This document shows positions 1 to 22,625 of a stretch of 24,000 nt of DNA, piece by piece (positions within the stretch are counted from its first letter, which is position 1; each line of letters begins with the position of its first letter). Position numbers and translations under genes: made by a program. Source of the DNA: Propionibacteriaceae bacterium (GTDB lineage Bacteria; Actinomycetota; Actinomycetes; Propionibacteriales; Propionibacteriaceae). The stretch is taken from contig JAUNSA010000015.1 in assembly GCA_030539405.1 (NCBI GenBank), positions 395 to 24,394 on the forward strand, given 5' to 3'. The notes under the pieces are model-generated. The model was not told the DNA's origin and did not search any database. It saw only the letters and a program-made list of their open reading frames with translations.

Positions 1-751
1 CGTGGCCGTCCACATCGTCGACGAAGTCGGCCAGGTCATCGGCCTCGGCGGTGGGAACCGGGCGGGAGTCGACCAGCTTGATCGTCAGGCCCTTGTTCAG
101 GAACGCCATCTCGCGGAACCGCGTGGCCAGCGTCTGCCAGTTGTAGTGCGTGGTCTCGAAGATCGTCGGCGAGGCGTGGAACGTGACCGTCGTGCCGGCC
201 TCATCGCCCTCACCCAGCGGCTCGAGGCGCTGCAGGTCGTAGTCGGGGACGCCGAGGCTGAACTCCTGGCGCCAGTGGTAGCCGTCGCGGCGCACGTCCA
301 CCTGGAAGCGGTCGCTCAGCGCGTTCACCACCGAGGCGCCCACGCCGTGCAGGCCGCCGGAGACCTTGTAGCCGCCGTCGCCGAACTTGCCGCCGGCGTG
401 CAGGACGGTCAGCGCCAGCGTGACGGCCGGGATCTTCTCCTTGGGATGCAGGTCGACGGGGAAGCCACGCCCGTTGTCGGTGACCCGGACGCCGTCGCCG
501 GGCAGCAGCTCGACCGTGATCAGGTCGGCGAACCCGGCCAGCGCCTCGTCGACGGAGTTGTCGACGATCTCGTACACCAGGTGGTGCAGGCCGCGTTCAC
601 CGGTCGAGCCGATGTACATGCCGGGCCGCTTGCGCACCGCCTCGAGCCCCTCGAGCACCGTGATGGCACTGGCGTCGTACACGCCCGCCTCCACCGAGTG
701 CGAGGATCCGTTGCGGGGCGCCGACTCGTTCGTGTCCGTCACAGACTTCAC
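1..751 (-). CDS. gyrB: DNA gyrase subunit B, N-terminal ~250 aa (3' part lies beyond the window start)
   Basis: Absent from the ORF track because it has no in-window stop. Manual minus-strand translation from GTG 751 gives [85 protein letters not shown], the GHKL ATPase motifs of GyrB. The 2..787 + ORF is its antisense shadow. AGGGAG SD at 754-759; the start could instead be GTG 742. Confidence 0.93.
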
Positions 752-770
752 ATCTCCCTAGCACGCGGAC

Positions 771-799
771 GCCGCCCTCACCCGTGAGTGCAGGGCGGC
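771..799 (-). promoter_or_regulatory. GC-rich stem-loop 20-48 nt upstream of the gyrB start
   Basis: GCCGCCCT(771-778) pairs with AGGGCGGC(792-799), and the inner CAC/GTG pairs extend the stem to 11 bp with one bulge and a 6-nt loop. No U-tract follows on either strand. Confidence 0.35.
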
Positions 800-917
800 G
801 ACCCTTGAACTCGTTCATCCTACTAGGAAGGCCCCCAAAACCACGCCTCTGTGAGCCGTGTGTGGCCACCAACGGCCTTCTGTGACGGTGTGGAGCCACG
901 TCACCCCCCAAATCCGA

Positions 918-939
918 CCCCCGGTATGCGCCCCGGGGG
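918..939 (-). terminator. candidate weak terminator hairpin downstream of the membrane-protein gene
   Basis: CCCCCGG(918-924) and CCGGGGG(933-939) form a 7-bp stem with an 8-nt loop. On the minus strand it is followed by TCGGATTTGG, which is only a short U-run, and it lies ~175 nt past the stop at 1114. Confidence 0.25.
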
Positions 940-1113
940 TTCGTGGACGCCCAGCGCGCACTGGGCCTCGTCCGGTGACGGTGGACGGCCTGGCGTAACC
1001 GCCCGGCACCACCCCTAACGAACATCCGCCGACTGCCCGGTAGTGGTCGCGGCCCGGGGTGGGCGCCTCCCGGGGCCTCGACCAGTACGGAGACGGTGGG
1101 CCGACACCAAGGC

Positions 1114-1725
1114 TCAGCCCTGCGCGGTCTCCCGCTGCGGCGCCTGCGGGGCCTGGCGGTGCGGGTTCCACCCGGGGCCGGCGACCTTGTCGGCGGCTGC
1201 CCCCGAGATGACCACCATCACCGCGGTCATGACACAGCCGTAGGCGAAGATGCCCACGACCCAGGGCCAGCTCAGCACGGGGGCGCCGGCCTGCACGATG
1301 CCGGGGTTGTTGAAGATGAGCAGCACCATCAGCATCTGGAGGAAGCCGACCAACACCGCGGGCACCACGGCGAACGGGGTGCGGCCGAGCAGCAGCGGGT
1401 GCACGGCGAGGATCAGGAAGATCACGAGCGTGACCCCGACCCCCAGCACCATGGGCGTCGACGCCGGGTTCGCGCCGATCATCGGGCCGGCCACGAGGTT
1501 GAACAGGAAGCCCCACACCGTGCCGGCGAGGAAGCTGAGGAACAGCGCGACCAGCCCGCCCAGCGGCATGCGCAGGGCGAAGAACAGCGGGATCGGCAGG
1601 ATCGCGAAGGGCGTGTAGGGCGCCATCTGGGGGAAGGCCGCCTGCACGGGCAGCAGCAACAAGGTGATGATCACGGCGCCGAGGATCGCCTCGACCAGCG
1701 TGCCCTTCACGAGCTTGGGGGACAT
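1114..1725 (-). CDS. uncharacterised polytopic integral membrane protein (~203 aa, about 5-6 hydrophobic segments)
   Basis: ORF 1114..1797, trimmed to ATG 1725 (MSPKLVKGTLVEAILGAVIITLLLL..), which is preceded by AAGGAG 5 nt upstream. The protein is strongly hydrophobic throughout and I recognise no family motif. It is divergent from the TetR gene. Confidence 0.75.
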   Translation of the reverse strand: MSPKLVKGTLVEAILGAVIITLLLLPVQAAFPQMAPYTPFAILPIPLFFALRMPLGGLVALFLSFLAGTVWGFLFNLVAGPMIGANPASTPMVLGVGVTLVIFLILAVHPLLLGRTPFAVVPAVLVGFLQMLMVLLIFNNPGIVQAGAPVLSWPWVVGIFAYGCVMTAVMVVISGAAADKVAGPGWNPHRQAPQAPQRETAQG

Positions 1726-1751
1726 GGGTTCTCCTTGGGAGTCGTCATCAT

Positions 1752-1841
1752 TGACGGTAAGTAGCGTCACTGCACACGGTAGAAACTCACGCGACACTAT
1801 GTCAAGAGTCTGACCATGGTGAGGTTTCTCTGTTGTATGTT
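1752..1841. promoter_or_regulatory. divergent promoter/operator region between the membrane-protein gene and tetR
   Basis: Minus strand: TTGACA (1805-1800), 18 nt, then TACCGT (1781-1776). A 14/18 dyad TGACGGTAAGTAGCGTCA (1752-1769) lies just downstream of that -10. The motif cGACActaTGTCA (1792-1804) overlaps the -35. Plus strand: TATGTT (1836-1841) ends 6 nt before ATG 1848, which would allow a leaderless tetR transcript. Confidence 0.5.
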
Positions 1842-1847
1842 CGGGGC

Positions 1848-2468
1848 ATGGCCAGCCTGAGGGACGCGCAGAAGCGCATGACGCGGGAGCTGTTGCTCGA
1901 CAACGGCCTGGAGCTGTTCACCCAGAAGGGGTACAACGCGACCACGATCGAGGACATCGCGGGCGCAGCCGGCACCACCCGCACCACCTTCTACCTGCAC
2001 TTCGCGTCGAAGAGCGAGCTACTGGCCCAGTTGCTCGAGCGCATCGCAGGCCAGGTGACAGACGCCGACGAGCACAAGCTCGAGGACTGCGTCGCCAGCG
2101 GCGACATCACCAAGATCAGGGGCTGGCTGAACCGCAACTTCGACAACTGGGACACCCTGCGCCCCTACCTGCTGCCCGCCTACGAGGCAGCGCCCTCAGA
2201 CCCCGTGATCCACGCGTCCCTGATCACCTGGTTCGAGGACACCATCTCGGCCATGCACCGCGGCCTCGACCGGGCCGACCGCTACGCCGAGGACGACCGG
2301 CGCGCGCGCTGCGTCATGGCGTTCGGCCAGTTCGAGTACACCGCCCACCGCTACTTCAGCCTGGGCTGGCGGACGCCCCGGGACGCCGTCCTGCGCAACA
2401 TGACCGACTCGTGGGCGTACTTGCTCACCGACCGGGGGCTGGCAGGTCCCGCCGCGGCGGACGCGTGA
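1848..2468 (+). CDS. TetR/AcrR-family transcriptional regulator
   Basis: The N-terminal HTH region TRELLLDNGLELFTQKGYNATTIEDIAGAAGTTRTTFYLHFASKSELL is typical of TetR_N. Start taken as ATG 1848. The alternative is TTG 1833, with GAGG 8 nt upstream, as in the track. Confidence 0.88.
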   Translation: MASLRDAQKRMTRELLLDNGLELFTQKGYNATTIEDIAGAAGTTRTTFYLHFASKSELLAQLLERIAGQVTDADEHKLEDCVASGDITKIRGWLNRNFDNWDTLRPYLLPAYEAAPSDPVIHASLITWFEDTISAMHRGLDRADRYAEDDRRARCVMAFGQFEYTAHRYFSLGWRTPRDAVLRNMTDSWAYLLTDRGLAGPAAADA

Positions 2469-3618
2469 GCACGGGTAACACGGCCCCGACCAGGGCGATA
2501 CCACCCAGCACGCTGAACGCCACCACGTAACCCCCGACCCCACCGGCCAACCACGCCCCCAGCAGCGGCCCGACCACCCCGGCCAGGCTCCAGCCGACGA
2601 GCATCAGGCCGTAGATCGCGCCCGCGTGGGCGACCCCGAAGAAGGTCCCGGCCGTGGACGGCATCACCCCAAACGCGCCGCCGTAGCAGAGGTAGACCAG
2701 CGCAGCCAGGGCCAGGAAGGTGAGGCCCGAGGTGTGCGGCAGGGCGATCAGCGCGAGCCCCTCCAGCACCAGGATCGTGGCGAGCACCCGCAACCTCCCC
2801 ACCTTCTGCGCCAGCGACGCCCAGACCACCCGGCCCGCACCGTTGAACAGGGCGAGGACGCCCACCGCGGCAGCCGCACCCGCGGCGTCCAGACCACCGA
2901 CGTCGGCAGCAGCACCGGCCATCATCGAGATCAGGGCGATCCCGGCCAGCACCGCGACGGTCAGCGTGGCGGTGAGCAGGTACCACTGCGGGGTGCGCAA
3001 CGCCTGCGCCACGGTGAAGTCGGACGCCGCGGCCGTGCGGTCACCCTCCTGCCGCGGCGGGCTGACCAGGAGCGCGGCCCCGATGAGGCCCAGGACGAGG
3101 TAGGCCAGGCCGAGGGGTCGGAAGGCGAGGGCGGGGGCGTCCGGGTTCTGTGCGATGAAGAACTGCGCTGCGGGCGAGGTGAGGGTGGCACCAAATCCGA
3201 ACCCCCCGACCGCGAGCCCGGTGACGATCGCGGTGTGCCGCGGGAACCACTTCTGCAGCAGCGCCACCGGCACGATGTAGGCCATGCCCAGCCCGAACCC
3301 CCCGACCACGCCGTAACCGAGCACGAGCAGCCACAGCAGGTCGGGCGTGGTCGCCAACGAGGCGAGCAGCACACCGGCACCGTAGAGGGCGACGCCCACC
3401 AGGGCGACGAACCGCGGCGAGCGACGATCCTGCAGGCGTCCACCCACGAACGCCCCGATGAAGATCATGCCGATGGCCACCTCGAACGGGATCGCCGCCT
3501 CGACCGCGCTCAGCCCCGGCTGGAGGGCACGCCCGAACAGACTCCAGGCGTACACGCCGCCGATCACGACCTGCACGACCACCCCGCCCACCAGGGCAGC
3601 CCACCGCGCATGCGTCAT
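2425..3618 (-). CDS. MFS transporter, oxalate/formate antiporter (OFA)-like family
   Basis: 397 aa with about 12 hydrophobic segments. The N-terminal GGVYAWSLF motif is characteristic of OFA/YhjX-type MFS proteins. Last gene of the minus-strand operon. Its 3' end overlaps the tetR 3' end by 44 bp. Confidence 0.85.
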   Translation of the reverse strand: MTHARWAALVGGVVVQVVIGGVYAWSLFGRALQPGLSAVEAAIPFEVAIGMIFIGAFVGGRLQDRRSPRFVALVGVALYGAGVLLASLATTPDLLWLLVLGYGVVGGFGLGMAYIVPVALLQKWFPRHTAIVTGLAVGGFGFGATLTSPAAQFFIAQNPDAPALAFRPLGLAYLVLGLIGAALLVSPPRQEGDRTAAASDFTVAQALRTPQWYLLTATLTVAVLAGIALISMMAGAAADVGGLDAAGAAAAVGVLALFNGAGRVVWASLAQKVGRLRVLATILVLEGLALIALPHTSGLTFLALAALVYLCYGGAFGVMPSTAGTFFGVAHAGAIYGLMLVGWSLAGVVGPLLGAWLAGGVGGYVVAFSVLGGIALVGAVLPVLTRPPRRDLPAPGR

Positions 3619-3636
3619 GGGGTCATCTTGGCAGGG

Positions 3637-5355
3637 CTACCCCGTGGTGTACGGCAGGACGATCCGGCTGGGGTGCTCGGCGTCCCGGTAGATCGTGTGG
3701 GTGACGGGGCGACCGACGGGCAGGTGGAAGGAGTCCGGCGGCAGCAGTGCGTTGTGCTCGTCGGCCAGGGGCTCGTTGTTGGAGAGCTCCAGGACGAGCT
3801 TGTGTCCGGGCAGGAACGCGTTCGCGAACGGGTAGAGCCGGATGACGTACTCGTTCACCTCCCCCGGCGTCACCGGCACCGCACGGGTGTGCGGGTGCAC
3901 GGGGCTGCCCTCGGTCGTCCGTTCGAGGTCGAGCTCGCGGTGCGACGCCTTCAGGTAGCCGGTGGTGATGAGCTGCCGCTTGCCGTTGGGGGCGGCGTCC
4001 CACAGCCGGAGGATGAAGTTGGTGTCCTCGGCGTCGATCGCGGCGAAGATGTGCGCCGCACCGGTGCCCATCATCTCGACCTTCTCGGTGAACGGCGCGG
4101 TCTCCCAGCTCAGGATCTCGACCTTGTCGGTCACCGTCAGCGGCGCCTGGAAGAAGCCGTCCGGGGCGGCGTACTCGGGCCCCATCAGCTCGGGCTCGGC
4201 CGACAGCTTGCGACGCGGGCGCAGGTACAGCGGACGGTACTCGGTCGGCTTCGGCGGCCACTCCTCGGCGGTCACATACTCGCGCGAGCCCTCGACGAAC
4301 ACGGTCACCGCCGACTCCTCGTCGACGCCGTTGTCGATGCCCTTGAGATACTTGTCGTACCAGCGGAACATCTTGTCGTGCTCCTCGATGAACGGGCGGC
4401 TCTGCATCGGCGGGTACGGCCCGAGGTCGAGCTTCTTCGGGCCGGTCACGGCGTTGAAGACCTCGATGGTGCCGTCCAGGGTCCAGCCGCGGCCGTGGTC
4501 GAGCTGCAGCCACACCGGGATGTCGATGTTGCCGGCAAGCTCGTTGGGGTTCCGCTCGGTGTACCAGGGGCCGTCGAGCTCGTTGGTGATGATGTCGAAC
4601 CACGGCTCGTGGTTCTTCGGGTAGTGCAGGACGTGCACCATGTTCGGCCACGCGGCGATGTCGGGGTCGGCCAGCCGGGCCTCGACCCGAGCGCGCACCT
4701 CGTCGGCCGACAGCTCGGAGAGCATCCGCGACTTCACGCCGTCGGTGAACGCCCAGCCCGAGTCGCCGCCTCGTCCCTCGCGCGCGGCGCGCGGCATGAG
4801 CCACATGATGCCGCCGTGGTAGGTGGTCTCGTAGAAGTCGTAGTGCCCGCCCGAGACGAAGATCGCCTTGAGCGACGGCGGGCGCTCGGCCGCCGCGATC
4901 ACCTGCATCGAGCCGAAGTAGCTGATGCCGATCATGCCGACGTTGCCGTCGCACCACGGCTGCGCGGCGACCCACTCGATGAAGTCGTAGGCGTCCTCGC
5001 CCAGCGACACGCCCCCGGCGTTGTAGTTGCCGATGTGCTCACCGTCGGAGTGACCGGTGCCGCGCAGGTCGCCGATGACGTGCACGTAGTCCTCGGCGAC
5101 GACGCGGGCGATGTCGCCGGCCTCGATGCAGCCGTCCCACATCGGGGAGGGACGCCGCTGCGGCGGCATGGTCAGCGCCAGCGCCTGGAGCTCCTTGCCG
5201 TAGGGGCTGAGCGCCACCAACGCCGGGCGCGGCTTCTCGTCAGTGCCCTCGTAGGCGTCGGCGACCAGCTCCACGCCGTCGCGCATCGGCACGCGCAGGT
5301 CCTTACGGATACGGATCGTCTGCCCGCCCGCGTCCCAGGTCCGGATGTCAGCCAT
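3637..5355 (-). CDS. CocE/NonD-family (S15, X-Pro dipeptidyl-peptidase-like) serine hydrolase
   Basis: 572 aa. Contains DLRGTGHSDG and the nucleophile elbow GISYFGS (GxSYxG), and has the long C-terminal domain typical of the family. Confidence 0.88.
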   Translation of the reverse strand: MADIRTWDAGGQTIRIRKDLRVPMRDGVELVADAYEGTDEKPRPALVALSPYGKELQALALTMPPQRRPSPMWDGCIEAGDIARVVAEDYVHVIGDLRGTGHSDGEHIGNYNAGGVSLGEDAYDFIEWVAAQPWCDGNVGMIGISYFGSMQVIAAAERPPSLKAIFVSGGHYDFYETTYHGGIMWLMPRAAREGRGGDSGWAFTDGVKSRMLSELSADEVRARVEARLADPDIAAWPNMVHVLHYPKNHEPWFDIITNELDGPWYTERNPNELAGNIDIPVWLQLDHGRGWTLDGTIEVFNAVTGPKKLDLGPYPPMQSRPFIEEHDKMFRWYDKYLKGIDNGVDEESAVTVFVEGSREYVTAEEWPPKPTEYRPLYLRPRRKLSAEPELMGPEYAAPDGFFQAPLTVTDKVEILSWETAPFTEKVEMMGTGAAHIFAAIDAEDTNFILRLWDAAPNGKRQLITTGYLKASHRELDLERTTEGSPVHPHTRAVPVTPGEVNEYVIRLYPFANAFLPGHKLVLELSNNEPLADEHNALLPPDSFHLPVGRPVTHTIYRDAEHPSRIVLPYTTG

Positions 5356-6274
5356 CGTTGCTCCTTCTCAGGTGTCCGTGCAGGGTCGTGAAGAACGACC
5401 ACGGTTCGTGCGTGGGGTCGCCCGCGTAACCGAGTTCGGACGCCGCCGCCTCGAACGGCGAGTACGGCGAGGCCGTCTCCCGGACGCCGTCAGCCGCGGT
5501 CTGCTCCCACACGGCCGCGATGCGGTCGGCGACCGCGATGCTCTCGGCCAGGGCGCGAGCGGCGTCCTCCACGACGACGCCGGGGGACTCGCCGGTCGTC
5601 CAGCGGTAGGGGTGACCGAGGTAGAGCCGCTGTGGCCGCACCTCGTCGCGCAGGCGGACCAGGCTCGCCCGGTAGTCGACCGGGTCGTCGTAGCCGGGGA
5701 TGCCGGAGGCCGCCCCGTTCAGCATCACCGTGTCGCCGGTGAACAGGTCACCCTGGCCGACCACTTCGTAGGCGACCGACCCGGCGGTGTGACCGGGCAC
5801 GTGGTGCACCACGATCCGGACGCCGCCGCCCAGGTCGAGCTCTTCGCCGCCCTGCAGCAGCACAGTGGGCTCGACGCCCCCGGAGATGACGGTGTCGGCC
5901 TGCGCCTGCTGGTCTGCCTCCAGCGTGGGGGTCGGCGCGTACCGGGCACCGATCTCGAGGTTCTTGGCGATGATCCCCGCCGGGGAACGCAACAGGTCGG
6001 CGTCCGCGGTGTGGATGGCGACCTGGGCACGGCGTCCGGTCGCCTCCACCAGGGCGGCCGTCCCGCCGATGTGGTCGATGTGCCCGTGCGTGTGCAGGAT
6101 CCACCGGACGTCCTCGAGCCGGCGCCCGAGCGTGGCCAATGCCGGGGCCATGCCCTCGGCCGGCGAGCTCGCGATGCCGGTGTCGATGATCGCCGGCTCC
6201 GGCGCGTCGATGAAGTAGCTGTACAGCCCGAACCGACCCCACGGGGAGACGAGCGGATGGATCCCGACGGTCAC
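5348..6274 (-). CDS. MBL-fold metallo-hydrolase
   Basis: Carries the HTHGHIDHIGG motif (HxHxDH) and a later HHVPGHT motif. Track ORF 5348..6826 is trimmed to GTG 6274, which forms a GTGA overlap with the upstream MFS stop. The upstream extension overlaps the MFS gene in another frame. Confidence 0.85.
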   Translation of the reverse strand: MTVGIHPLVSPWGRFGLYSYFIDAPEPAIIDTGIASSPAEGMAPALATLGRRLEDVRWILHTHGHIDHIGGTAALVEATGRRAQVAIHTADADLLRSPAGIIAKNLEIGARYAPTPTLEADQQAQADTVISGGVEPTVLLQGGEELDLGGGVRIVVHHVPGHTAGSVAYEVVGQGDLFTGDTVMLNGAASGIPGYDDPVDYRASLVRLRDEVRPQRLYLGHPYRWTTGESPGVVVEDAARALAESIAVADRIAAVWEQTAADGVRETASPYSPFEAAASELGYAGDPTHEPWSFFTTLHGHLRRSNDG

Positions 6275-7611
6275 GACGCCGCCCGCTCCGGCGCAGGCGC
6301 CTGCGTGTTGGCGGTCAGGTTGCGGTTCAACGGCACGAACCAGAAGGCCAGCGCGGCGATCAGGCCGGGCAGGCCGAACCACACGAAGTTCATCGCGACG
6401 GGCAGGTTCATGGTGAGCAGGATGCCACCGAAGATCGGGCCGAAGATGGCCCCGATCCGGCCGACGGCCGAGGCGAGCCCGATCGCCGTGGAACGCATGA
6501 ACGGCGGGTAGTACTGCGCGACGAACGCATACGAGATGTTCTGCGCGCCGTTGGCGGTGGCGCCCGTGACGGCGACTAGGGCCAGCAGCAGGACCAGTCC
6601 GCTGCCGAATCCGAGCAGCGCCAGCGAGACCGCCGCGCCGATGTACATCGGCACCAGCACCTTCTTCACGCCCAGCTTGTCGGCGAGGCGTCCGAGGAAG
6701 AGGGTGCCGATGATCGCGCCGATGTTCTGGAAGATCGGGAAGTTGAGGCTCGAACCCAGGTCGTAGCCCGACCTCACCATCAGTTGCGGCAGCCACACGG
6801 TGAGGCCGTTCAGCATGAGCAGGCACATGAAGAACGCCACCCAGATCATGAGGGTGCCCAGGGCGCGGCCCTCGGTGAACAGTGCGGCGATGGGCGCCTT
6901 CTGCTGCTTGGCCTCGGGGGCGGGGAAGGTGACCTCGGACGCCGTGACCGGGCGTCCGGCCAGATCACTCAGGACGCCCAGGGCAGCATCCTGACCGCGC
7001 CGGTGCGCCAGCACCGACGGCGAGTCGGGGAAGTAGCGGCCCATGAAGGGCACGAACAGCAACGGGATCGCGGCGACCCAGTAGGCGGCCTGCCAGCCCA
7101 GCGTCGGAATCATCGCCATGGCCACCAGCGCCGCGAGGATGCCGCCGACGTGGAAGAAGCTCATCACGATCGCGACGTAGCTGTTCGCCCGCCCCTTGGG
7201 TGCGTAGTCGGTCAGCGTCGCGATGACCGTGGGCAGGATGCCGCCGATCCCGAGACCGGCGAGGAACCGGAAGATCGAGAACACCGTCGGATTGGGCGCG
7301 AACCCACACAGTGCGGTGGCCGCACTGAACAACACCACGGCGGTGAGCAGGACCCGCTTGCGGCCGAACCGGTCGGCGAGCATGCCGAAGCCGACAGCTC
7401 CCAGCATCATGCCGAAGAAGCCGTAGCTGCCGATGGCTCCGGCCTCGACGGGGGTGATGCCCCACTGCTCGATGAGCACCGGGAGGACCGACCCGTAGAT
7501 CACGAGGTCGTACATGTCGAAGGTGATGATGAAGCAGGTCCAGAACAGCATCCAGAAGTGGAAGCGGTTGAACCTGGCCTCCTCGATGAATTCGCGCACG
7601 GTCGTGGTCAT
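6271..7611 (-). CDS. MFS transporter, aromatic-acid:H+ symporter (AAHS)-like
   Basis: 446 aa with 12 predicted TM segments. The N-terminus (FHFWMLFWTCFIITFDMYDLVIYGSVLP) and the GMLADRFGRKRVL loop resemble PcaK/BenK/MhpT-type transporters. Confidence 0.85.
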   Translation of the reverse strand: MTTTVREFIEEARFNRFHFWMLFWTCFIITFDMYDLVIYGSVLPVLIEQWGITPVEAGAIGSYGFFGMMLGAVGFGMLADRFGRKRVLLTAVVLFSAATALCGFAPNPTVFSIFRFLAGLGIGGILPTVIATLTDYAPKGRANSYVAIVMSFFHVGGILAALVAMAMIPTLGWQAAYWVAAIPLLFVPFMGRYFPDSPSVLAHRRGQDAALGVLSDLAGRPVTASEVTFPAPEAKQQKAPIAALFTEGRALGTLMIWVAFFMCLLMLNGLTVWLPQLMVRSGYDLGSSLNFPIFQNIGAIIGTLFLGRLADKLGVKKVLVPMYIGAAVSLALLGFGSGLVLLLALVAVTGATANGAQNISYAFVAQYYPPFMRSTAIGLASAVGRIGAIFGPIFGGILLTMNLPVAMNFVWFGLPGLIAALAFWFVPLNRNLTANTQAPAPERAAS

Positions 7612-7635
7612 GGGTCGGTCTCCAGGGTCGGGGTG

Positions 7636-8517
7636 TCAGCGGTTGAGGAACGCGGCGGTCTGGTCGAACACCCGGGCGAAGTCGCCGATCCAACCGAAGT
7701 TGGCCACGAAGCCGTGGTTGGCGCCTTCGTAGCGGGTGTGGGTGACCGGGACGCCGGCCTCGGCCAGGCGTCGGGCATACAGCTCGCCCTCGTCGCGGAG
7801 CGGGTCGTGCTCGGCGGTGACGACCAGCGCCGGGGGCAGCCCGGTCAGGTCGGCGCGCTTGATCGGGGAGACCCGTGGGTCGTCCGGGTCGGCACCCGAG
7901 TCGAGGTAGAACGCGTTGAACGGCGCCAGCCCTGCGGTCTCCAGGCCGTACCCGGTCGCCTCGGTGCGCAACGACTCGTAACGCGTGGTGTCGAAGTCGA
8001 GGTCGAGGCTCGGGTAGTACAGGACCTGATGGGTCACGGCGTCCAACCCCTCATCGGCCGCACGGGCCGCGAGCGCGGCAACGAACGTACCCCCGGACGA
8101 GTCGCCGGCCAGGGCGACCGGGCCGCCCTGCCCGGCGGCCCACCTGACCACCGTCCAGCAGTCGTCGAGTCCGGCCGGGAAGGTGTGCTCGGGCGCGAGC
8201 CGGTAGTCCACCGACACGACGGTCCAGTCGGTGGCGTTGGCCAGGGCGCGTGCCACGTGGTCGTGGGTGTCGAGGCTGCCGAGGAAGAACGCTCCGCCGT
8301 GGAAGTAGACGAGCGTGCCGTCACTGACGGCGTCCGAGCGGTAGACCCGCACGGGAACGCCGTCGACGTCGGCGTCCTCGACGGACGCCACGGGGATGCG
8401 GTCGGCGGGCGCGGGGACCTGCGCGGCCTCTCCGGCCCGCATGGCGACCGGGTCGAGCGGGCCCGGCGGCGGTGCCGGCAGGGAGGCCAGCACCTCCGCG
8501 ATCTGTGGGTGGATCAC
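7636..8517 (-). CDS. alpha/beta hydrolase fold-3 esterase/lipase (hormone-sensitive-lipase family)
   Basis: Has an HGGAF oxyanion motif, a GDSSGG nucleophile elbow, and DPLRDEG plus a C-terminal HGF for the triad. Track ORF 7636..9366 is trimmed to GTG 8517, which forms a GTGA overlap with the upstream stop. Confidence 0.85.
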   Translation of the reverse strand: MIHPQIAEVLASLPAPPPGPLDPVAMRAGEAAQVPAPADRIPVASVEDADVDGVPVRVYRSDAVSDGTLVYFHGGAFFLGSLDTHDHVARALANATDWTVVSVDYRLAPEHTFPAGLDDCWTVVRWAAGQGGPVALAGDSSGGTFVAALAARAADEGLDAVTHQVLYYPSLDLDFDTTRYESLRTEATGYGLETAGLAPFNAFYLDSGADPDDPRVSPIKRADLTGLPPALVVTAEHDPLRDEGELYARRLAEAGVPVTHTRYEGANHGFVANFGWIGDFARVFDQTAAFLNR

Positions 8518-9644
8518 TCGTCGACACCGACCTTCTCGCCGGGGCGCTTCTGGCCGGGGAAGACGTCGTTGACCTCGTCCTCGCTCCAGCCCTGGCGCGA
8601 GATGCGCTGCAGCTCGTCGGTGATCGGCTTGCGCTCGGCGGCGTAGGCGGCCACGGCCTCCTTGACGGTGTCGTTGTCCTTCAGCGCCTGGGCGAGCGCC
8701 CCGGCATCGAGGATCGCCGAGTTGGCGCCCTGGCCCTGGTGGTGGCACATGGCGTGGGCGGCGTCGCCGAGGAGCACGACGGAGTCGGAGTGCCAGACGT
8801 CGACCGGGTCGATGTCGTAGACGGCGCGGATGTTGACCTTGTCCATGTCCAGGTCCTGCACGAGCTTCACGATGCGCTCGTCGAAGCCCTCGACGGTGGC
8901 GAGCAGGTCCTCCTTGGTGCGGACCGGGTTGCGCGTCGGGTCGGTGTTGAGCGCGGTGACGTCGAAGCTCATCTGGTTGCGGTGGCGCAGCGGCAGGACG
9001 TACACCTTGGTGCCGCGGCCCAGGTACATGCGCAGGTTGTCGTCGGTGACCAGGCCGTGCGCGGCGTCGGCGTCCACGACCACACGGTAGGCGTGCTCGC
9101 CGGCGAAGACGGGCTGCTGGTCGCTGAACAACTGCGCCCGGACGGTGGAACGGATGCCATCGGCACCCACGACCAGGTCGGCCTCGACGGTCTCGCCGTC
9201 GGCGAAGGTCAGCGTGGCGGTGCCGCCGTTGTCGACGATCTTCTCCAGCTTCTTGTTGGTCTTCACCATGCCCTCGGGCAGCGAGCCGACCAGCGCCTGG
9301 ATGAAGTCGTTGCGGTGGACGAGGTGGGTGTGGGTCTTGGTCTCGTAGTCGTCCATGCCCGGCCACTGGTCCTTGGCGATGGTGTGGCCCTCAGCGGTGA
9401 GGATCTCGAAGTAGTTGGACGCCGAGGTGACATCGGCGATCGCGTCGAAGATGCCCCACTGGCGGAACTGGTCCATCGACGAGGGGCGCAGGCCGATGCC
9501 GGCGCCGACCTCCCTGATCTCCTTGGCCTGCTCGTAGACGGTGACCTGGGCACCCAGGTTGGACAGGGCCTTGGCCGCGGAGGCGCCGCCGTAGCCGCCG
9601 CCGACGATGGCGACGCGCAGGTTCTTCAGCTGGTCAGTGTTCAT
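8514..9644 (-). CDS. FAD-dependent aromatic-ring monooxygenase (class A, salicylate/3-hydroxybenzoate hydroxylase-like)
   Basis: Contains VAIVGGGYGGASAA (GxGxxG), VGADGIRSTVR (DG motif) and LLGDAAHAMCHHQGQGAN (GD motif). Start is ATG 9644, preceded by AAGGAAGAG. The longer track ORF overlaps the PTE gene. Confidence 0.88.
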   Translation of the reverse strand: MNTDQLKNLRVAIVGGGYGGASAAKALSNLGAQVTVYEQAKEIREVGAGIGLRPSSMDQFRQWGIFDAIADVTSASNYFEILTAEGHTIAKDQWPGMDDYETKTHTHLVHRNDFIQALVGSLPEGMVKTNKKLEKIVDNGGTATLTFADGETVEADLVVGADGIRSTVRAQLFSDQQPVFAGEHAYRVVVDADAAHGLVTDDNLRMYLGRGTKVYVLPLRHRNQMSFDVTALNTDPTRNPVRTKEDLLATVEGFDERIVKLVQDLDMDKVNIRAVYDIDPVDVWHSDSVVLLGDAAHAMCHHQGQGANSAILDAGALAQALKDNDTVKEAVAAYAAERKPITDELQRISRQGWSEDEVNDVFPGQKRPGEKVGVDE

Positions 9645-9681
9645 GGTGTTGTCTCTTCCTTGAGGCGTTGGTTGCAGGAGG

Positions 9682-10638
9682 TCAGGTGATCGGCTGGACG
9701 GTGTAGAACTCGGCGGGGCGGGTGACGAAGAGGCGGGTGATCTCGGCATCGTCGATGCCGGCCTCGCGCAGGTCGGGGATGAGCTCCTCGAACAGGTAGT
9801 TGACGGTGTGGCCCTTGACGCCGGGCCAGCCCAGGGGTGAGCAGTTGGCGTCGACGCCGGCCAGCACCTGGTCGGGGTACTCGGCGTGGAACTGCCGGAA
9901 GTGGGCGAGCCGCTCGGCGCGCTTGCGACCCCAGAACGGCGGGTCGGGAAGCTCCAGGTCGTAGCCGAACGTGTCGAACCCGACGATGCCGCCTTGGGCG
10001 GCGATCCACGCGTGGTTGGTCTTGTCGTGGTTCACCCCGTCGTCGGCGTGGCCGAAGATCACGCGGTCCAGGGGCATCCTCTCGTCGTGGAAGATCTCCA
10101 CGGCCGGCTCGGCGTCGATAGCCAGGTGGGTCACGATCGGGACGCCGGTGGCGCGGGCTGCGCGCCCGGCCGCGCGGTAGATGCGCTTGTCGAGCTCGGT
10201 CATCCTGCCCCCGCGGCTGACGCCGACCTTGATCACGCCGGCCTTGGCGCCGGTGGTGCCGATGCCCTCGGTGATCTCGTGGACGAAGACGTCGGCGAGG
10301 TACTCCACCGACGCGGTGGCGAAGTGCTTCAGGGCGGTGTCGCCACCGACGAAGCCGGTGCACGCGATGATGTGCACGCCGGTCTTGGCCGACAGCACTT
10401 GGTAGTAGTCGACGTCGCGACCGTTGCAGATGCCGGTCATGTCGACGAACGTGCGACCGCCGTACGCGTGGAACTGGCGCAGTTGCGCCATCGTCTCGTC
10501 GACGCGGGCCTCGAACGGCTTCCACCACTTGGTGTCCAGCTCGCTGCCGGGCATGCCGTAGCCGACGTGCTCGTGGATGGCGACGTAGCCGAGCTCCTCG
10601 GGCGCGACGGGGCCCAGCACGGTGTTGACGTGTGCCAT
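9682..10638 (-). CDS. phosphotriesterase (PTE) family hydrolase, apparently intact binuclear metal site (PTE-like lactonase/PHP type)
   Basis: 318 aa. Metal ligands seen: IHEHV (HxH), GVIKVG (candidate carbamylated Lys), VTHLA, FGHAD and GVDAN. A GAAGGAGG SD lies inside the 3' end of the upstream gene, 8 nt before the ATG. Confidence 0.88.
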   Translation of the reverse strand: MAHVNTVLGPVAPEELGYVAIHEHVGYGMPGSELDTKWWKPFEARVDETMAQLRQFHAYGGRTFVDMTGICNGRDVDYYQVLSAKTGVHIIACTGFVGGDTALKHFATASVEYLADVFVHEITEGIGTTGAKAGVIKVGVSRGGRMTELDKRIYRAAGRAARATGVPIVTHLAIDAEPAVEIFHDERMPLDRVIFGHADDGVNHDKTNHAWIAAQGGIVGFDTFGYDLELPDPPFWGRKRAERLAHFRQFHAEYPDQVLAGVDANCSPLGWPGVKGHTVNYLFEELIPDLREAGIDDAEITRLFVTRPAEFYTVQPIT

Positions 10639-10641
10639 GTC

Positions 10642-11637
10642 TCAGGCCTCCTTCTGGATGGTCAGCCAGGTGGCCGGGTTGGTGGTCGTCAGGGCGGTGG
10701 TGTCGGCGTCCGACAAGCCGCGGGCGGCCAACAGCGGGACGAACGACGTGAGCACGTGCTCGAACGCGGTGCCGGGGCGGGGCAGCCCCTTGGCGACGCC
10801 GATGGCGCCGCTGGCCACCAAGACGCGGTCGCGGTGACCCGCCTGCACGAGCTCGACGACCAGGTCGGCCCGTTCGTCGTCGGAGAGGAGGTCGTCGGAC
10901 GCGGTCCCCACCTGGGTGAGCCCCACCAGGGCGCCCTTCTCGGCGACGGCGACGGCCGCACCCGCGGCGTCCTTGCTGTCGAGGCCGACCACGAGCACGC
11001 GGGCCGGGTCGACCTCCTCGGCGAGGACGAGGTCGAGCTCGGCCACCGCGTCGGCGCCATAGCGGAACGCCATGGGCGCGCCGGTGGCGGCAGCCGTCCG
11101 GGCGGCACCGCGCAGCAGCGACTCGTCGGTGCCGGTGAGCCCACCGGTCGTGCCGGCGGTGACCACGAGGCCCGCGGCCGCGCGGCGCTCGATGCGGGGG
11201 ACGACCATGCCTTGGCTCACCTCGGCGGTGAACAGCTCGGCGAACCGGTCGGCCGGCCACGGCGTCGGCGGGTTGGTCTGGGGAGTCTTGAAGTAGCCAC
11301 CCAGGTTCTCTTCGGGGCCCATGCCGGTCGAGGCGACGATGTGGACGCCGGTGGCCTTCGACACGGCCTCGAGCAACGGCAGGTTGCGCCCGTGGAACAT
11401 GCCCGAGGCGTCCACCACCGTGCCGCCGCCGGCGGCCTTGAAGGCGTTCAGTTGGGCGACGAGTTCTGTCACGACCTCGGCGCGGTCGATCGTGATGTCA
11501 GGCGCGTGCTCGGCACCGGGAACCACGCTGAGCAGGGCCTCGTGCGCCGCCACCACGCCGAGCTCGTCGGCCGGGACCGGGCCGAGCACGGTGTTGACGG
11601 TGCGCCCGGAGTCACCGGGGGACGTCGTTGTCGTCAT
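10642..11637 (-). CDS. PTE-family paralog with degenerate metal-binding site (probable non-catalytic or neofunctionalised)
   Basis: Aligns by eye with the neighbouring PTE (VNTVLGPV, TGVHIVASTG). However HEH is replaced by HEA, the Lys by Thr (VVTAG), a His by Arg (AFRYG), a His by Leu (VGLDS) and the Asp by Gly (ASGAI). Start trimmed to ATG 11637, with GAAAGG 5 nt upstream. Confidence 0.8.
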   Translation of the reverse strand: MTTTTSPGDSGRTVNTVLGPVPADELGVVAAHEALLSVVPGAEHAPDITIDRAEVVTELVAQLNAFKAAGGGTVVDASGMFHGRNLPLLEAVSKATGVHIVASTGMGPEENLGGYFKTPQTNPPTPWPADRFAELFTAEVSQGMVVPRIERRAAAGLVVTAGTTGGLTGTDESLLRGAARTAAATGAPMAFRYGADAVAELDLVLAEEVDPARVLVVGLDSKDAAGAAVAVAEKGALVGLTQVGTASDDLLSDDERADLVVELVQAGHRDRVLVASGAIGVAKGLPRPGTAFEHVLTSFVPLLAARGLSDADTTALTTTNPATWLTIQKEA

Positions 11638-11658
11638 GGGAACCTTTCGTGGCTTCAC

Positions 11659-11706
11659 TGACACTGTGTCATTCAAATATACGTAGCGTCACCGACGCGG
11701 TGTCAA
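11659..11706 (-). promoter_or_regulatory. promoter/operator of the hydrolase operon
   Basis: Minus strand: a perfect TTGACA (11706-11701) and an A/T-rich TATATT (11681-11676, 19-nt spacing). A perfect 13-bp palindrome TGACACTGTGTCA (11659-11671) lies just downstream of the -10 and 22 nt upstream of the ATG. A related cGACgcggTGTCA (11693-11705) overlaps the -35. Confidence 0.5.
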
Positions 11707-14742: not shown

Positions 14743-15123
14743 TGATGCTCCCAGGTCGATGAACGGCGCCCGGAGGTGCACGGGCGGCTGCGTGGCCGAT
14801 CCTATCGTGCGATGTGGGCGTCGTCGGCACCGACGGCGTTACCCACAATCGCGCAGGGTCCTGAGGTTGAAGAGAAGGAGATGTCTAACTTCTCTTCTTC
14901 GTCTTCACACCTGTGGATCTCGTGGACAGTCGGCGTCTGCCCAAGCCGCATCGGTGTTTCGGCCCAGCACATCCTGTGGGAAAACCGGAACTACACGGGG
15001 AGGATTTGTGGAGCCGTTTCCGGGTCGATCCGGCTGTCCACAGCACGGCCTGGTTGTCCACAGGGTTGTTGGGGAGAAATCCCCACGTTCGCGACTCGTC
15101 GGATGCCGTCGCGGCACGCCGCA
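14743..15123. other. probable oriC: DnaA-box cluster plus AT-rich element in the dnaA-dnaN spacer
   Basis: Matches to the 9-mer TTGTCCACA: 15054-15062 (9/9), 15034-15042 (8/9), TTACCCACA at 14839-14847, and reverse-orientation boxes at 14912-14920, 14921-14929, 14975-14983 and 15007-15015 (6-7/9). An AT-rich stretch at 14862-14910 contains a perfect 9-bp inverted repeat, GAAGAGAAG (14869-14877) and CTTCTCTTC (14889-14897). Confidence 0.8.
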
Positions 15124-16541: not shown

Positions 16542-16574
16542 CCGTCCACACTACTGTCCACAATCTGTGGAAAA
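16542..16574. promoter_or_regulatory. three DnaA boxes upstream of dnaA (autoregulatory region)
   Basis: CCGTCCACA at 16542-16550, CTGTCCACA at 16554-16562, and TGTGGAAAA (reverse complement TTTTCCACA) at 16566-16574. These lie 27-60 nt upstream of the dnaA ATG. Weaker boxes occur at 16751-16760 and 16782-16790. Confidence 0.7.
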
Positions 16575-19286: not shown

Positions 19287-19943
19287 ATGGACGCCCCCGC
19301 TGCGGCCACCGCGGTCTTCGGGGACGAGCTGCCCCGCGCCGTGGCGTTCGCCGAGTTCCTGGCGACCCACGGCGTGGAGCGCGGCCTGTTGGGGCCGCGC
19401 GAGGTCGATCGGATCTGGGAGCGGCACGTCCTCAACAGCGTGGCCGTGGGGCATGCCATGCCCGAGGGCGCCACGGTGGTCGATGTCGGCAGTGGGGCCG
19501 GCCTGCCCGGCATGCCTGTGGCCCTGGCGCGCCCCGACCTGCAGATCACCTTGTTGGAGCCCCTGCTGCGACGCTCGCAGTTCCTGGAGGAAGCCGTCGA
19601 GGTCTTGGACCTAGGTGAGCGTGTCCGCGTGGTGCGCGGCCGGGCCGTTCCCCCCGGCGACAACGACCCCCTGGGGCACCACGAGCGCTACGACGTCGTC
19701 ACCAGCCGCGCCGTGGCCGCACTCCCCCGCCTGCTGGGCTGGTGTGTGCCGCTGATGAACGCTGACGGCCGGATCGTGGCGCTGAAGGGCGCGACGGCGA
19801 CGGACGAGATCAACCAGGCAACCCAGGACCTACGCCGTCACCGCCTCGACGCCGAAGCCCGCAGCGTGGTGACCCACGAGGGCGCCGAACCCACCTGGCT
19901 AGTCGTCTGCACCGGCTCCCACGCCCACCCCCGCACCGCGTAA
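19287..19943 (+). CDS. rsmG: 16S rRNA (guanine527-N7)-methyltransferase RsmG
   Basis: Contains RIWERHVLNS and the SAM-binding motif VVDVGSGAGLPGMPVALA. The gene order jag-rsmG-parA-parB is conserved. Confidence 0.92.
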   Translation: MDAPAAATAVFGDELPRAVAFAEFLATHGVERGLLGPREVDRIWERHVLNSVAVGHAMPEGATVVDVGSGAGLPGMPVALARPDLQITLLEPLLRRSQFLEEAVEVLDLGERVRVVRGRAVPPGDNDPLGHHERYDVVTSRAVAALPRLLGWCVPLMNADGRIVALKGATATDEINQATQDLRRHRLDAEARSVVTHEGAEPTWLVVCTGSHAHPRTA

Positions 19944-20044
19944 CCGCCGAGGACCGGCGCCTGCACCGCCGAGGACCGGCGGTGACGCTGCCGAAGACCG
20001 GCGGTGACGCCTGCCGAGGACCGGGAGAGGCAGCCGCAGGACGG
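19944..20044 (+). repeat. array of 4 (possibly 5) phased direct repeats, core CCGAGGACCGGCG
   Basis: Cores sit at 19947-19959, 19969-19981, 19991-20003 (CCGAAGACCGGCG) and 20014-20026 (CCGAGGACCGGGA), with spacings of 22, 22 and 23 bp. A degenerate copy occurs at about 20034. The array starts immediately after the rsmG stop. Confidence 0.85.
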
Positions 20045-20196
20045 ATATCTCCCTGTGCCTTAACAAATAAACACACAAGAAGATAAGTCGATATAAAGCT
20101 ATACAGAGAACATTGGCCCTACAAGCGTGGTTGGCGGCGTCCGCATGTAGGAGCGGGTAGATTGTCCCGGTCCGTACGTTTCTGCAGGAGGTTCAT

Positions 20197-21114
20197 GTGG
20201 TGGCAACTTCCCCAGCCACGCCACGCCGAGCGGCAACCTTGGAGCCGGAGATCGCCGAGGGCGTGCCTGAAGCGCCTGACGACCTGGCGCCGGGTGTTTC
20301 ACGTGAAACACCGACGCTCCCCCAGCCTGGATCGCCCCGCATTATGGTGGTGGCCAACCAGAAGGGCGGTGTGGGAAAGACCACGACCGCTGTGAACGTG
20401 GCGGCGGGGCTCGCCGCCGGAGGGTTGAAGGTGATGGTGATCGACATTGATCCCCAGGGGAACGCCTCGACCGCCCTCAGCGTGGAGCACGGAGAAGGGA
20501 CGCCGGGGACCTACGAGGTTCTGGTGGATCAAGAACCCATCATTGACTCTCTGCAACGCTGCCCAGACCTGCCCGGGCTCTGGGTGCTGCCCGCCACGAT
20601 TGACTTGGCCGGTGCAGAGATCGGGCTGGTTGCCACCGTTTCACGTGAAACACGCCTCAAGCAGGCGCTGGACGCCTTCTTCGACCACTACTACGTCGAC
20701 TACGTCATCATCGACTGCCCGCCATCCTTGGGGCTGCTCACCCTCAACGCACTCGTGGCCGCTCACGAGATCATGATCCCGATCCAGTGCGAGTACTACG
20801 CCTTGGAGGGGGTAACCCAGCTCCTGAAGACAATCAACTTGGTCAAGGGACGCCTCAACGACAGCCTCGTCCTGTCCACCGTGCTGTTGACCATGTACGA
20901 CGGTCGGACGAACCTGGCCTCACAGGTGGCGGACGAAGTCCGGCGCCACTTCGAGCGCGAAACGCTCACCGCGGTGATCCCCCGCTCGGTGCGCGTCGCG
21001 GAGGCACCGTCCTACGGACAGACGGTCATCACCTACCAACTCAACTCGGTGGGCGCACAGGCCTACCTGGCGGCCGCCAGCGAGATCGCGGAACGCGGCG
21101 CAACCGGCTTCTGA
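20197..21114 (+). CDS. parA: chromosome partitioning ATPase ParA/Soj
   Basis: Deviant Walker A NQKGGVGKTTTAVNVAAGLA, plus IIDCPPSLGLLTLNAL. GTG start lies 5 nt after AGGAGG. Has an N-terminal extension of ~45 aa. Confidence 0.92.
   Translation: MVATSPATPRRAATLEPEIAEGVPEAPDDLAPGVSRETPTLPQPGSPRIMVVANQKGGVGKTTTAVNVAAGLAAGGLKVMVIDIDPQGNASTALSVEHGEGTPGTYEVLVDQEPIIDSLQRCPDLPGLWVLPATIDLAGAEIGLVATVSRETRLKQALDAFFDHYYVDYVIIDCPPSLGLLTLNALVAAHEIMIPIQCEYYALEGVTQLLKTINLVKGRLNDSLVLSTVLLTMYDGRTNLASQVADEVRRHFERETLTAVIPRSVRVAEAPSYGQTVITYQLNSVGAQAYLAAASEIAERGATGF
20295..20310. other. parS centromere site (perfect 16-mer palindrome)
   Basis: TGTTTCACGTGAAACA matches the universal chromosomal parS consensus at 16/16. 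It lies inside the parA N-terminal extension and encodes VSRET. Confidence 0.9.
20637..20652. other. parS centromere site (15/16)
   Basis: CGTTTCACGTGAAACA, inside the parA ATPase core, encodes VSRET within the conserved ..SRExRLK.. segment. Confidence 0.85.
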
Positions 21115-21133
21115 CTAGGAGGAACGTACTCTC

Positions 21134-22075
21134 ATGGCAACACCACGTCAGCGCAGCGGACTCGGCCGTGGTCTGGGTGACTTGATTCGACCCACCTCAG
21201 CGGAACCCGCACCAGAGTCGAACCAGCCACGTCAGCAGGAAGAGCCCGAATCCGGCAGCCTCGTACCCGCACCGGCGGGCGCGGCCTTCGTTGAGCTGCC
21301 CGTTGACGAGATCGCGGCCAACCCCCGACAGCCGCGCCACGTCTTCGATGAGGACGACTTAAGTGAGCTGGTCGAGTCGATCAGGGAGGTCGGACTCCTG
21401 CAGCCGGTGGTCGTTCGGCGCGTCGAGGATGGTTATGAGCTGGTCATGGGCGAGCGACGTCTCCGTGCCACACGGAAGGCGGGACTCACGCACATCCCGG
21501 CCATCGTTCGCGAGACCGCCGACCACGACCTTCTGCGTGATGCACTACTGGAGAACCTCCATCGGGTGCAGCTCAACCCCTTGGAAGAGGCTGCTGCTTA
21601 CCAGCAGATGCTCGATGACTTCGGGTGTACGCAGGAGGAACTCGCCACGCGGATCAAGCGGTCACGCCCCCAGATCTCGAACACGATCCGCCTGCTGCGT
21701 CTGCCAGCCCCCGTGCAGCGTCGCGTGGCAGCCGGCGTCCTGTCGGCTGGGCACGCCCGGGCCCTCCTGATGGTGCAGGACCCCGTTGAGCAGGAGCGCT
21801 TGGCCCAGCGGATCGTGGCCGAAGGATTGAGCGTTCGGTCGGTCGAGGAGCTCGTCGCAGTGGGGGAGCGAGCTCCTCGCACGCGTCGCACGATCGCTCG
21901 GACGCCCTCGCCCAGGGCTGCGCACCTGGCCGAGGTCTTCTCCGACAGCTTGGACACCAGGGTGAACGTCCAGATCGGCAAGTCCAAGGGCAAGATCACC
22001 ATCGAGTTCGCCGGTGAGGACGACTTGGACCGCATCCTGACGGTGCTGCGGGACGGAGTCTCGACTCAGGGATAA
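21134..22075 (+). CDS. parB: chromosome partitioning protein ParB/Spo0J
   Basis: Contains N-terminal [10 protein letters not shown], the ParB box [25 protein letters not shown], and HTH region [34 protein letters not shown]. Confidence 0.93.
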
Positions 22076-22100
22076 GTAGACAAAACTGCTTTTGGCCATG

Positions 22101-22205
22101 GAACCGGTCCTCGACGTTCAAAGCACCGGTCTTCGGCGTTTCTGCCGCCGGTCCTCGGCGACTTAGGCGCCGGTCGTCGGTGACCGTATCGCCGGTCCTC
22201 GATGG
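22101..22205 (-). repeat. array of 5 phased direct repeats, core CGCCGGTCCTCGG (reverse complement of the upstream array)
   Basis: CCGGTC(C/T/G)TCG cores start at 22104, 22126, 22148, 22170 and 22192, an exact 22-bp period. The spacers between them are not conserved. Confidence 0.88.
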
Positions 22206-22259
22206 GTGGACGATTAGTCGACAAACGGCTAAAGCCCTAAACGGCTAATCGGCTCCGCC

Positions 22260-22625
22260 TCAGGCGCGGACAGCATCCAACCGGGTCCGGACGTCCTTGG
22301 TGGCGTAGTGCTCGGCGACGAACGACAGGAACGGGATGGTGCCGGCCAGCGCGATCAGGATCAGGCGCATCCAGGGCCAGCGCACGCGGCGTCCGAGATC
22401 GTAGGCGGTGATCAACAGCACCATGTACAGCCAACCGTGCGGCACACCGGTGGCCACGACGACGGCATCGTTGTCGCCGAAGTACTTCAGGGGCATCCCG
22501 ACCACCACGAGAACGACCAGCAGGACGCCGACCAACCAGGCCATCACGCGGTAGCGCAGCAGGGCACCTCGGATGCCGGCAACCTCCTCGGCCTCGATGG
22601 GGCTGTCGTCGAGCGACATGCTCAT
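22260..22625 (-). CDS. DUF3817-type small integral membrane protein
   Basis: 121 aa with 3-4 TM segments. LRYRVMAWLVGVLL..VPHGWLYMVLLITAYDL resembles the DUF3817 family. ATGA overlap with the upstream gene. Confidence 0.75.
   Translation of the reverse strand: MSMSLDDSPIEAEEVAGIRGALLRYRVMAWLVGVLLVVLVVVGMPLKYFGDNDAVVVATGVPHGWLYMVLLITAYDLGRRVRWPWMRLILIALAGTIPFLSFVAEHYATKDVRTRLDAVRA

Follow-up and report, generated by a model that had tools for sequence, protein, structure and literature searches.

The DNA analyzed here, a window of 24 kb (GC 0.69) on the one 29.6-kb contig of a MAG that served as the source, is the chromosomal origin region of a high-GC actinobacterium; motif counts given below cover this window. 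Its minus strand carries recF, dnaN, and dnaA and its plus strand rnpA, yidC, jag, rsmG, parA, and parB, while after parB the minus strand is used again for a DUF3817 gene, a SURF1-like gene, and ddl. The order yidC, jag, rsmG, parA, parB was confirmed with NCBIfam. The genes, sites, and repeat arrays around parAB are the following.

19287..19943, plus strand: rsmG, 16S rRNA m7G527 methyltransferase (TIGR00138, 2.9e-34)
19944..20026, plus strand: array A, four 22-bp units directly 3' of the rsmG stop codon
20075..20115 (about 20060-20119), plus strand: AT-rich element, GC 0.33, between array A and parA; holds TAAGTCGATATA
20158..20163, plus strand: TAGATT, probable -10 hexamer of the parA promoter, assigned from conservation
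20197..21114, plus strand: parA, ParA-family ATPase; GTG start with AGGAGG ahead; both parS sites inside
20295..20310: parS site 1, TGTTTCACGTGAAACA, perfect, inside parA
20637..20652: parS site 2, CGTTTCACGTGAAACA, single mismatch, inside parA
21134..22075, plus strand: parB, ParB/Spo0J
22097..22211, minus strand: array B, five reverse-complement units of 22 bp, in the spacer where parB and DUF3817 converge
22260..22625, minus strand: DUF3817 membrane-protein gene, convergent with parB

The encoded ParB matches, at 100% identity, a protein from a MAG annotated as Propionibacteriaceae bacterium; it has the standard ParB_N, HTH_ParB, and ParB_C domains and nothing further, and no parS-like sites besides the two in parA were found in the 24-kb window. 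Third-position GC is 0.80 in parA and 0.77 in parB versus 0.90 to 0.95 in the neighboring genes, and the dip is smaller in the parA and parB of relatives (0.84 to 0.92). At the far end of the window (2-11676) lie two tandem phosphotriesterase-family genes and genes for an FAD monooxygenase, an esterase, MFS transporters, an S15 peptidase, and a TetR regulator; they occupy the place downstream of recF and dciA that an adjacent gyrB-gyrA pair usually takes, and an open reading frame with a HATPase_c domain runs off the window start.

A preliminary description of this DNA had reported four good copies and one degenerate copy of a short core behind rsmG, at spacings of 22, 22, and 23 bp. The four copies were borne out by the sequence and by Tandem Repeats Finder (period 22, 3.7 copies, score 104): the rsmG stop codon TAA occupies 19941-19943, array A begins right behind it, and the CGANGACCGG cores lie at 19948-19957, 19970-19979, 19992-20001, and 20015-20024. 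The cores can be extended to CCGAGGACCGGCG from 19947 and 19969, CCGAAGACCGGCG from 19991, and CCGAGGACCGGGA from 20014, and the longer unit CCGA(G/A)GACCGGCGGTGACGC, said to be common to copies 2 and 3, is likewise present. The proposed fifth copy, CCGCAGGACGG (20034-20045, plus strand), did not hold up; it is roughly in phase (about 21 bp), it needs two indels, and the unit profile misses it even at E<=10. It is unsupported and was left out of the unit count. About 115 bp separate the end of array A from the likely -10 hexamer of parA, and both the array and the AT-rich box lie upstream of that hexamer. The TAGATT is contained in GGTAGATTG (window 20150-20170), about 35 to 40 bp upstream of the parA start, which recurs in the same place in the related loci L160 (about 2530) and L163 (about 2525), with the counterparts GATAGATTG in L164 (about 2528) and GGTAGAGTG in L085 (about 2500), and it is probably the promoter's -10 element. 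A promoter consensus search gave no match.

Downstream of parB lies a second array, overlooked in the preliminary description, which starts 22 bp past the parB stop codon and has its cores at 22192-22201, 22170-22179, 22148-22157, 22126-22135, and 22104-22113, all four spacings being exactly 22 bp. Arrays A and B form a mirror pair around parAB and its two internal parS sites, with the core orientations facing the operon, and between them lie roughly 2.1 kb with parA, parB, and both of the parS sites that the window has. Over 36 nucleotides, part of the spacers included, the segments A1-A2 and B2-B3 show 86% complementarity, which argues that the arrays share ancestry and that one was derived from the other. 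The presence of an inverted second array across parAB strengthens the link of the repeats with this operon, and the layout suggests that the two blocks may act together around parAB and parS, by looping or as barriers. An 8-bp repeat, AAACGGCT, occurs in four copies (22223-22254; 70% matches) between array B and the stop codon of DUF3817.

The preliminary description had also stated that the motif is neither parS nor a DnaA box, and this was confirmed. The core CGANGACCGG is unrelated to the 16-bp palindrome of the parS centromere (TGTTTCACGTGAAACA type), which is found only inside parA, and by reading of the sequence it matches at best five of nine positions of a DnaA box; a datA-like cluster of TTGTCCACA-type boxes was rejected. 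DnaA boxes of the form (T/C)TGTCCACA lie at 15034-15062, in the dnaA-dnaN spacer, and at 16554-16574, at the dnaA start; oriC-type clusters with variants included cover 14840-15062 and 16545-16574. With up to one mismatch allowed, boxes are found around dnaA and once inside yidC, and none near the arrays; the distance from the arrays is about 3.4 kb to the dnaA gene and about 5 kb to the box cluster between dnaA and dnaN (oriC region).

When the nine units are aligned in register, CGANGACCGG is kept in all of them, and nine columns, CGA.GACCGG, are invariant. The remaining 13 columns of the unit have a mean pairwise identity of 0.41, compared with about 0.30 for random sequence of this composition and 1.00 for the core, and the chance of nine invariant columns falling within ten adjacent columns is 0.0004. 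These values uphold the earlier claim of a conserved core with variable spacers that is not a recent tandem duplication. They also reject membership among VNTRs or minisatellites as defined by near-identical whole units. Of the eight intervals in the two arrays, seven measure 22 bp and one measures 23 bp, a pitch maintained even though the orthologous spacers are rich in indels. All nine exact matches to CGANGACCGG in the 24-kb window lie in the arrays, compared with 1.05 +/- 1.02 in shuffled sequences, none of which (0/100) reached nine. A unit profile scored the nine copies at 12.6 to 19.6 bits and the best other site in the 24 kb at 8.3 bits, and neither the exact nor the profile search of the window found a copy outside arrays A and B, degenerate copies included. 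A chance origin of the arrays is excluded. Two more specific patterns were considered and rejected: a second half-site at +11 bp, as in OmpR/PhoB-type sites, is inconsistent across the units on reading their alignment, and CsrA-like GGA loops do not fit a second loop base that varies (AGGAC, AAGAC, ACGAC).

The unit can also be written as a hairpin, ACCGCCG-AGGAC-CGGCGGT, that is, as a 22-bp imperfect palindrome. The canonical hairpin forms in five of the nine units (A1-A3, B3, and B4; -6.6 to -16.2 kcal/mol), while A4, B1, B2, and B5 have no canonical fold and perfect cores; units with 3-bp stems likewise have perfect cores. Over the nine units, 76% of the cells are paired versus 72% in column shuffles, 25 of 500 of which reach the observed value, and the two strands are equivalent for pairing (55 versus 54 paired cells). 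The conserved portion of the unit corresponds to the would-be loop and the three inner pairs, and the outer stem drifts. As RNA, array A folds with a z score of -3.4, and array B with -1.94 on the minus strand and -0.74 on the plus (parB) strand. No match to the intrinsic terminator consensus was found on either strand of 19800-22400, and the units have no T-runs or U-tracts; the Rfam 15 covariance models gave only a chance mir-308 match (19.7 bits versus a gathering score of 60, E 0.86). With five of nine units folding and pairing near the shuffle level, hairpin or RNA structure was rejected as the main conserved property. Since sequence and phase are conserved and structure is not, recognition of the sequence, as in iteron-like sites, is the best reading of the units.

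Conservation of the arrays was assessed in related parAB loci. The closest relatives (Propioniciclava, Nigerium, and metagenome contigs) have ParB proteins 81 to 85% identical to that of the window, and the fully syntenic closest relative, represented by L160-L162, shares 84% identity in YidC, 75% in Jag, 73% in RsmG, 92% in ParA, 81% in ParB, and 88% in DUF3817. The order rsmG-parA-parB-DUF3817 is conserved in relatives without the arrays, where DUF3817 and SURF1 also lie on the opposite strand. No clustered cores were found in 84 related parAB loci from metagenomes and genomes (near-core background, 0.30 per kb), the motif was not found in six further loci that include L160-L162, and a search of the 23 closest loci with the unit profile returned nothing below E = 0.4. 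The best subthreshold matches, in L077 and L078 (8.8 bits), belong to or descend from the coding sequence of an RHH protein and were discarded. The preliminary description had made conservation in orthologous spacers a mark of a specific role; across about 90 related loci, the closest fully syntenic one among them, matches were neither clustered nor significant, and on these comparisons the arrays are lineage-specific. A mirror layout of other repeats could not be recognized in the relatives either, since the 10-mers common to their upstream and downstream spacers were noise and L114 was negative. The identity ranking of the relatives is the same for every gene and gives no hint of horizontal replacement. 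Given the synteny kept in array-less relatives, this concordant ranking, and the lack of a transposase in the window, transposon ends and a parAB cassette acquired by transfer were both rejected.

Wider searches placed the 10-mer in other contexts. A scan of one genome per GTDB species for three CGANGACCGG units at 22 to 23 bp returned 65 loci, which are heterogeneous VNTR-type arrays with periods of 11 to 23 bp in GC-rich genomes (Streptomyces, Nocardioides, and others); their spacers are mostly near-identical, a few arrays having diverged ones, and none of the 65 loci has parA, parB, or rsmG nearby. In viral contigs the two-unit pattern gave 10 chance or unrelated matches. BLAST against plasmid and phage collections gave chance matches only (E >= 0.02), and a plasmid or phage origin of the arrays was rejected on these results. 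A literature search on the motif and on repeat arrays at chromosomal parAB loci found nothing relevant.

The spacers themselves offer a possible local source of the arrays. At the very position of array B, in the parB-DUF3817 spacer, relatives carry one strong GC hairpin (-27.1 kcal/mol, z -4.2 in L160; -33.8 kcal/mol, z -3.4 in L104); the parB-DUF3817 spacer of the window has no other strong hairpin, and in a MAFFT alignment the first unit of array B aligns with the left arm of the relatives' hairpin. L160 contains single core-like sequences in matching orientation, ACGGCGAGGACG after the rsmG stop codon and, in the hairpin, the reverse-complement CCGAGTGCCGG (9/11). Taken singly, these matches are by a rough estimate barely above the chance level; in combination, they suggest growth of the arrays from local terminator sequence. 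Several relatives have unrelated arrays, with repeats of 8 bp (x5.5) in L077, of several sizes in L083, of 19 bp (x3.6) in L084, of 23 bp (x3.2) in L113, and of 16 to 17 bp (about x6) in L121. They lie in the rsmG-parA spacer or downstream of parB, at 2702-2782 in L077, 580-900 and 3929-4092 in L083, 2437-2506 and 6072-6121 in L084, 2668-2800 in L113, 1648-1984 in L121, and 2407-2445 in L076. L121 has about 12 or more GTCCA(C/T)GCGGCAC cores at a variable spacing of 16 to 23 bp, and the 22- to 23-bp array of L113 has a CACCGTCCGAGG core. The spacers flanking parAB appear, from these sequences, to be prone to or permissive for repeat arrays in this group. One Nigerium-like contig, L078, has an RHH/PemK toxin-antitoxin pair downstream of parB (1906-2513), and L077, which is syntenic with it, has an apparent remnant of RHH/PemK sequence in the parB-DUF3817 spacer.

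A different element recurs at these spacers in this family. A 12-bp box of the TAAGTCGACAAA type, TAA(A/G)TCGA(C/T)AAA, a near-palindrome (TWWGTCGACWWA), flanks parAB and is present three times in the window.

20084-20095, plus strand: box TAAGTCGATATA, between array A and parA
22073..22084, plus strand: box TAAGTAGACAAA, overlapping the parB stop codon, between parB and array B
22214..22225, plus strand: box TTAGTCGACAAA, beyond array B as seen from parB

In most close relatives a copy of the box overlaps the stop codon of parB, and copies are also seen in a clade at 59 to 60% ParB identity; upstream of parA it is found in the window and in L160-L162. Its positions are 2342 and 4449 in L160, 663 in L104, 4964 in L079, 2367 in L082, 3373 in L083, 4424 in L085, 4428 and 4475 in L086, and about 50 bp past parB in L147-L159. 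Over all fetched loci, 30 boxes were counted, nearly all of them upstream of parA or at the parB end, against a background of 0.03 per kb. The box is not parS and differs from the DnaA box of the source organism. Its conservation extends much further than that of the 22-bp arrays, and it may be the more general regulatory element of the locus.

For the arrays themselves, we tentatively favor the reading that both are phased binding sites for a sequence-specific DNA-binding protein, and put its chance at somewhat below even. What is conserved is a contiguous, asymmetric 10-bp sequence and its helical phase, not a secondary structure, as a directional array of DNA-binding sites would show. Each protomer would read the core CGANGACCGG together with weakly conserved flanks (roughly YGYCGANGACCGGCG), and at a spacing of 22 bp, or about 2.1 helical turns, four or five protomers could sit side by side on nearly one face of the DNA. 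Two directional arrays that face each other across about 2.1 kb would yield two nucleoprotein blocks bracketing parAB and the two parS sites; if the blocks bridged, the operon might be looped out and regulated, or, alternatively, the blocks might be barriers that flank the sites of ParB loading. Protein binding, its cooperativity, the looping or barrier action, and any effect on parAB are what we infer from the arrangement of the sites. The preliminary description had called the array iteron-like and protein-binding, and part of this stands: the anatomy, the phase, the mirror layout, and an invariant core beside near-random spacers are all present in the sequence, which is conserved as sequence and not as structure. 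On the other side, none of the related parAB loci examined has the motif, which counts against the proposal, as a role important for parAB should be conserved. No candidate binding protein is evident among the genes of the 24-kb window, in which one TetR-family gene lies at a distance, and this also counts against it. So do the location of the arrays at the positions of the relatives' terminator hairpins together with the good folding of five units, and the unrelated arrays in the same spacers of relatives, because the spacers may merely tolerate repeat expansion.

Several other explanations account for part of these observations. We consider it unlikely, though worth serious thought, that the units are members of a REP/BIME-like or MITE-like family, short extragenic palindromes specific to this lineage and dispersed in the genome at gene 3' ends; the core would then be kept by the propagating enzyme or process, and the arrays would be two of many, with no role specific to parAB. 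Such a family would explain imperfect 22-bp palindromes at gene ends (right behind the rsmG stop codon and where parB and DUF3817 converge) and would account for a unit at two separate places in opposite orientation more easily than local slippage does; absence from relatives is as expected of a young family, and with about six to eight sizeable spacers in the window, two arrays would fall in neighboring spacers with a probability estimated at about 0.25. However, no further copy, even a degenerate one, occurs anywhere else in the 24 kb, transposases, of RAYT/IS200 type or otherwise, are missing from the window, conservation does not fall on the hairpin stem, and the units run head to tail at a fixed 22-bp phase, whereas in classical BIMEs the repeat orientation alternates. 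The fixed phase is also unfavorable to a role of the arrays at the RNA level as tandem terminators or RNA-stabilizing 3' untranslated region hairpins, amplified from the single terminator hairpins that relatives have after rsmG and parB, because RNA hairpins need no fixed 22-nucleotide phase. In that case array A would insulate parAB from read-through of rnpA-yidC-jag-rsmG and array B would be a bidirectional terminator, as might be expected from the relatives' strong GC hairpin exactly at the position of array B, where the window has no other, from the single core-like sequences of L160 at both places in matching orientation, and from the folding of A1-A3, B3, and B4 (-6.6 to -16.2 kcal/mol) and of array A as a whole (z = -3.4). 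Yet four of the nine units cannot form the hairpin although their cores are perfect, and conservation falls on the loop while the outer stem varies, opposite to the effect of selection on a stem; U-tracts and a consensus terminator were not found, and array B folds like shuffled sequence on the parB strand (z -0.74) and weakly better on the other (z -1.94). We regard this RNA-level explanation as quite unlikely.

It is very unlikely that the arrays are neutral, functionless minisatellites produced by VNTR-type slippage in long permissive spacers, the core being an accident of unit decay. Short tandem arrays of other sequence in the same spacers of relatives (L077, L083, L084, L113, and L121) and the tandem arrays with this 10-mer that are scattered over GC-rich genomes (65 loci, period 11 to 23 bp) are in its favor, but neutral decay cannot leave 81 core positions unchanged beside near-random columns, most VNTR-type arrays elsewhere have near-identical spacers and few have diverged ones, and slippage does not explain a second, inverted array. 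Highly improbable, and in our estimate the least probable of the readings considered, is that the arrays are protein-bound directional boundary elements around parS, which would loop parAB and parS or stop ParB clamps, SMC, or transcription. They would then amount to a bacterial insulator around the centromere, built from a repeat that differs from lineage to lineage, and the unrelated arrays of relatives might hint at this.

If a protein does coat the arrays, as would follow from their being phased binding sites, they would represent an undescribed accessory layer on a chromosomal ParABS system, in the origin region and a few kilobases from oriC, with control of parAB expression or a limit on the extent of the ParB-parS complex as candidate roles. 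If they instead belong to a dispersed repeat, the finding is of smaller value, a new family of small extragenic repeats in an uncultured Propionibacteriaceae lineage. Either way, the arrays are confined to one lineage, and their general importance is limited accordingly.

In layout the arrays resemble known repeat arrays on plasmids. Among plasmid iterons, two arrays flank the rep gene in P1 (incC/incA) and in mini-F (ori2/incC). The arrays described here resemble iterons, as these are generally described, in their head-to-tail repeats with a conserved core, a variable spacer, and a pitch of about 22 bp, in the AT-rich stretch beside one array, and in the two arrays that flank a short gene block. 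They differ in being chromosomal, in flanking parAB, in having no sequence match to any plasmid, and in having no rep or initiator gene in the 24 kb and no adjacent DnaA box; no Rep gene and no RAYT/IS200-type or other transposase was found among the sizeable open reading frames of the window. The AT-rich element is also present in the closest relative L160, which has no array, and being conserved in array-less relatives it is not part of an iteron origin. Of the features of such an origin, the repeat pitch is found here, and a Rep gene and associated DnaA boxes with an AT-rich unwinding element are not. Plasmid centromeres offer a second comparison, since repeat arrays lie upstream and/or downstream of the par operons of pB171 (parC1/parC2), R1 (parC), and F (sopC). 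As in these, short phased direct repeats are found on both sides of an operon of the parA-parB type; unlike them, the present system is a chromosomal type Ia ParABS with canonical parS inside parA and a standard ParB, and the core is unrelated to parS.

Among chromosomal repeats, the mycobacterial TRIT motif is an example of a lineage-specific terminator-like repeat, akin to REP and BIME elements. With REP and BIME elements the units share their short, imperfectly palindromic, extragenic, and clustered character, their location at gene 3' ends, their restriction to a lineage, and their occurrence in both orientations. They differ from them in the fixed head-to-tail phase, in the conservation of loop and inner stem and not of the whole stem, and in the lack of a RAYT gene in the window. 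The VNTRs or minisatellites of GC-rich Actinobacteria are likewise intergenic with a period around 22 bp, and dozens contain the same 10-mer; most of them, however, have near-identical units that reflect recent expansion, whereas the spacers here are near-random and the core is invariant. The feature belongs with the phased direct-repeat arrays, a known kind, of which the variant at this parAB locus is lineage-specific.
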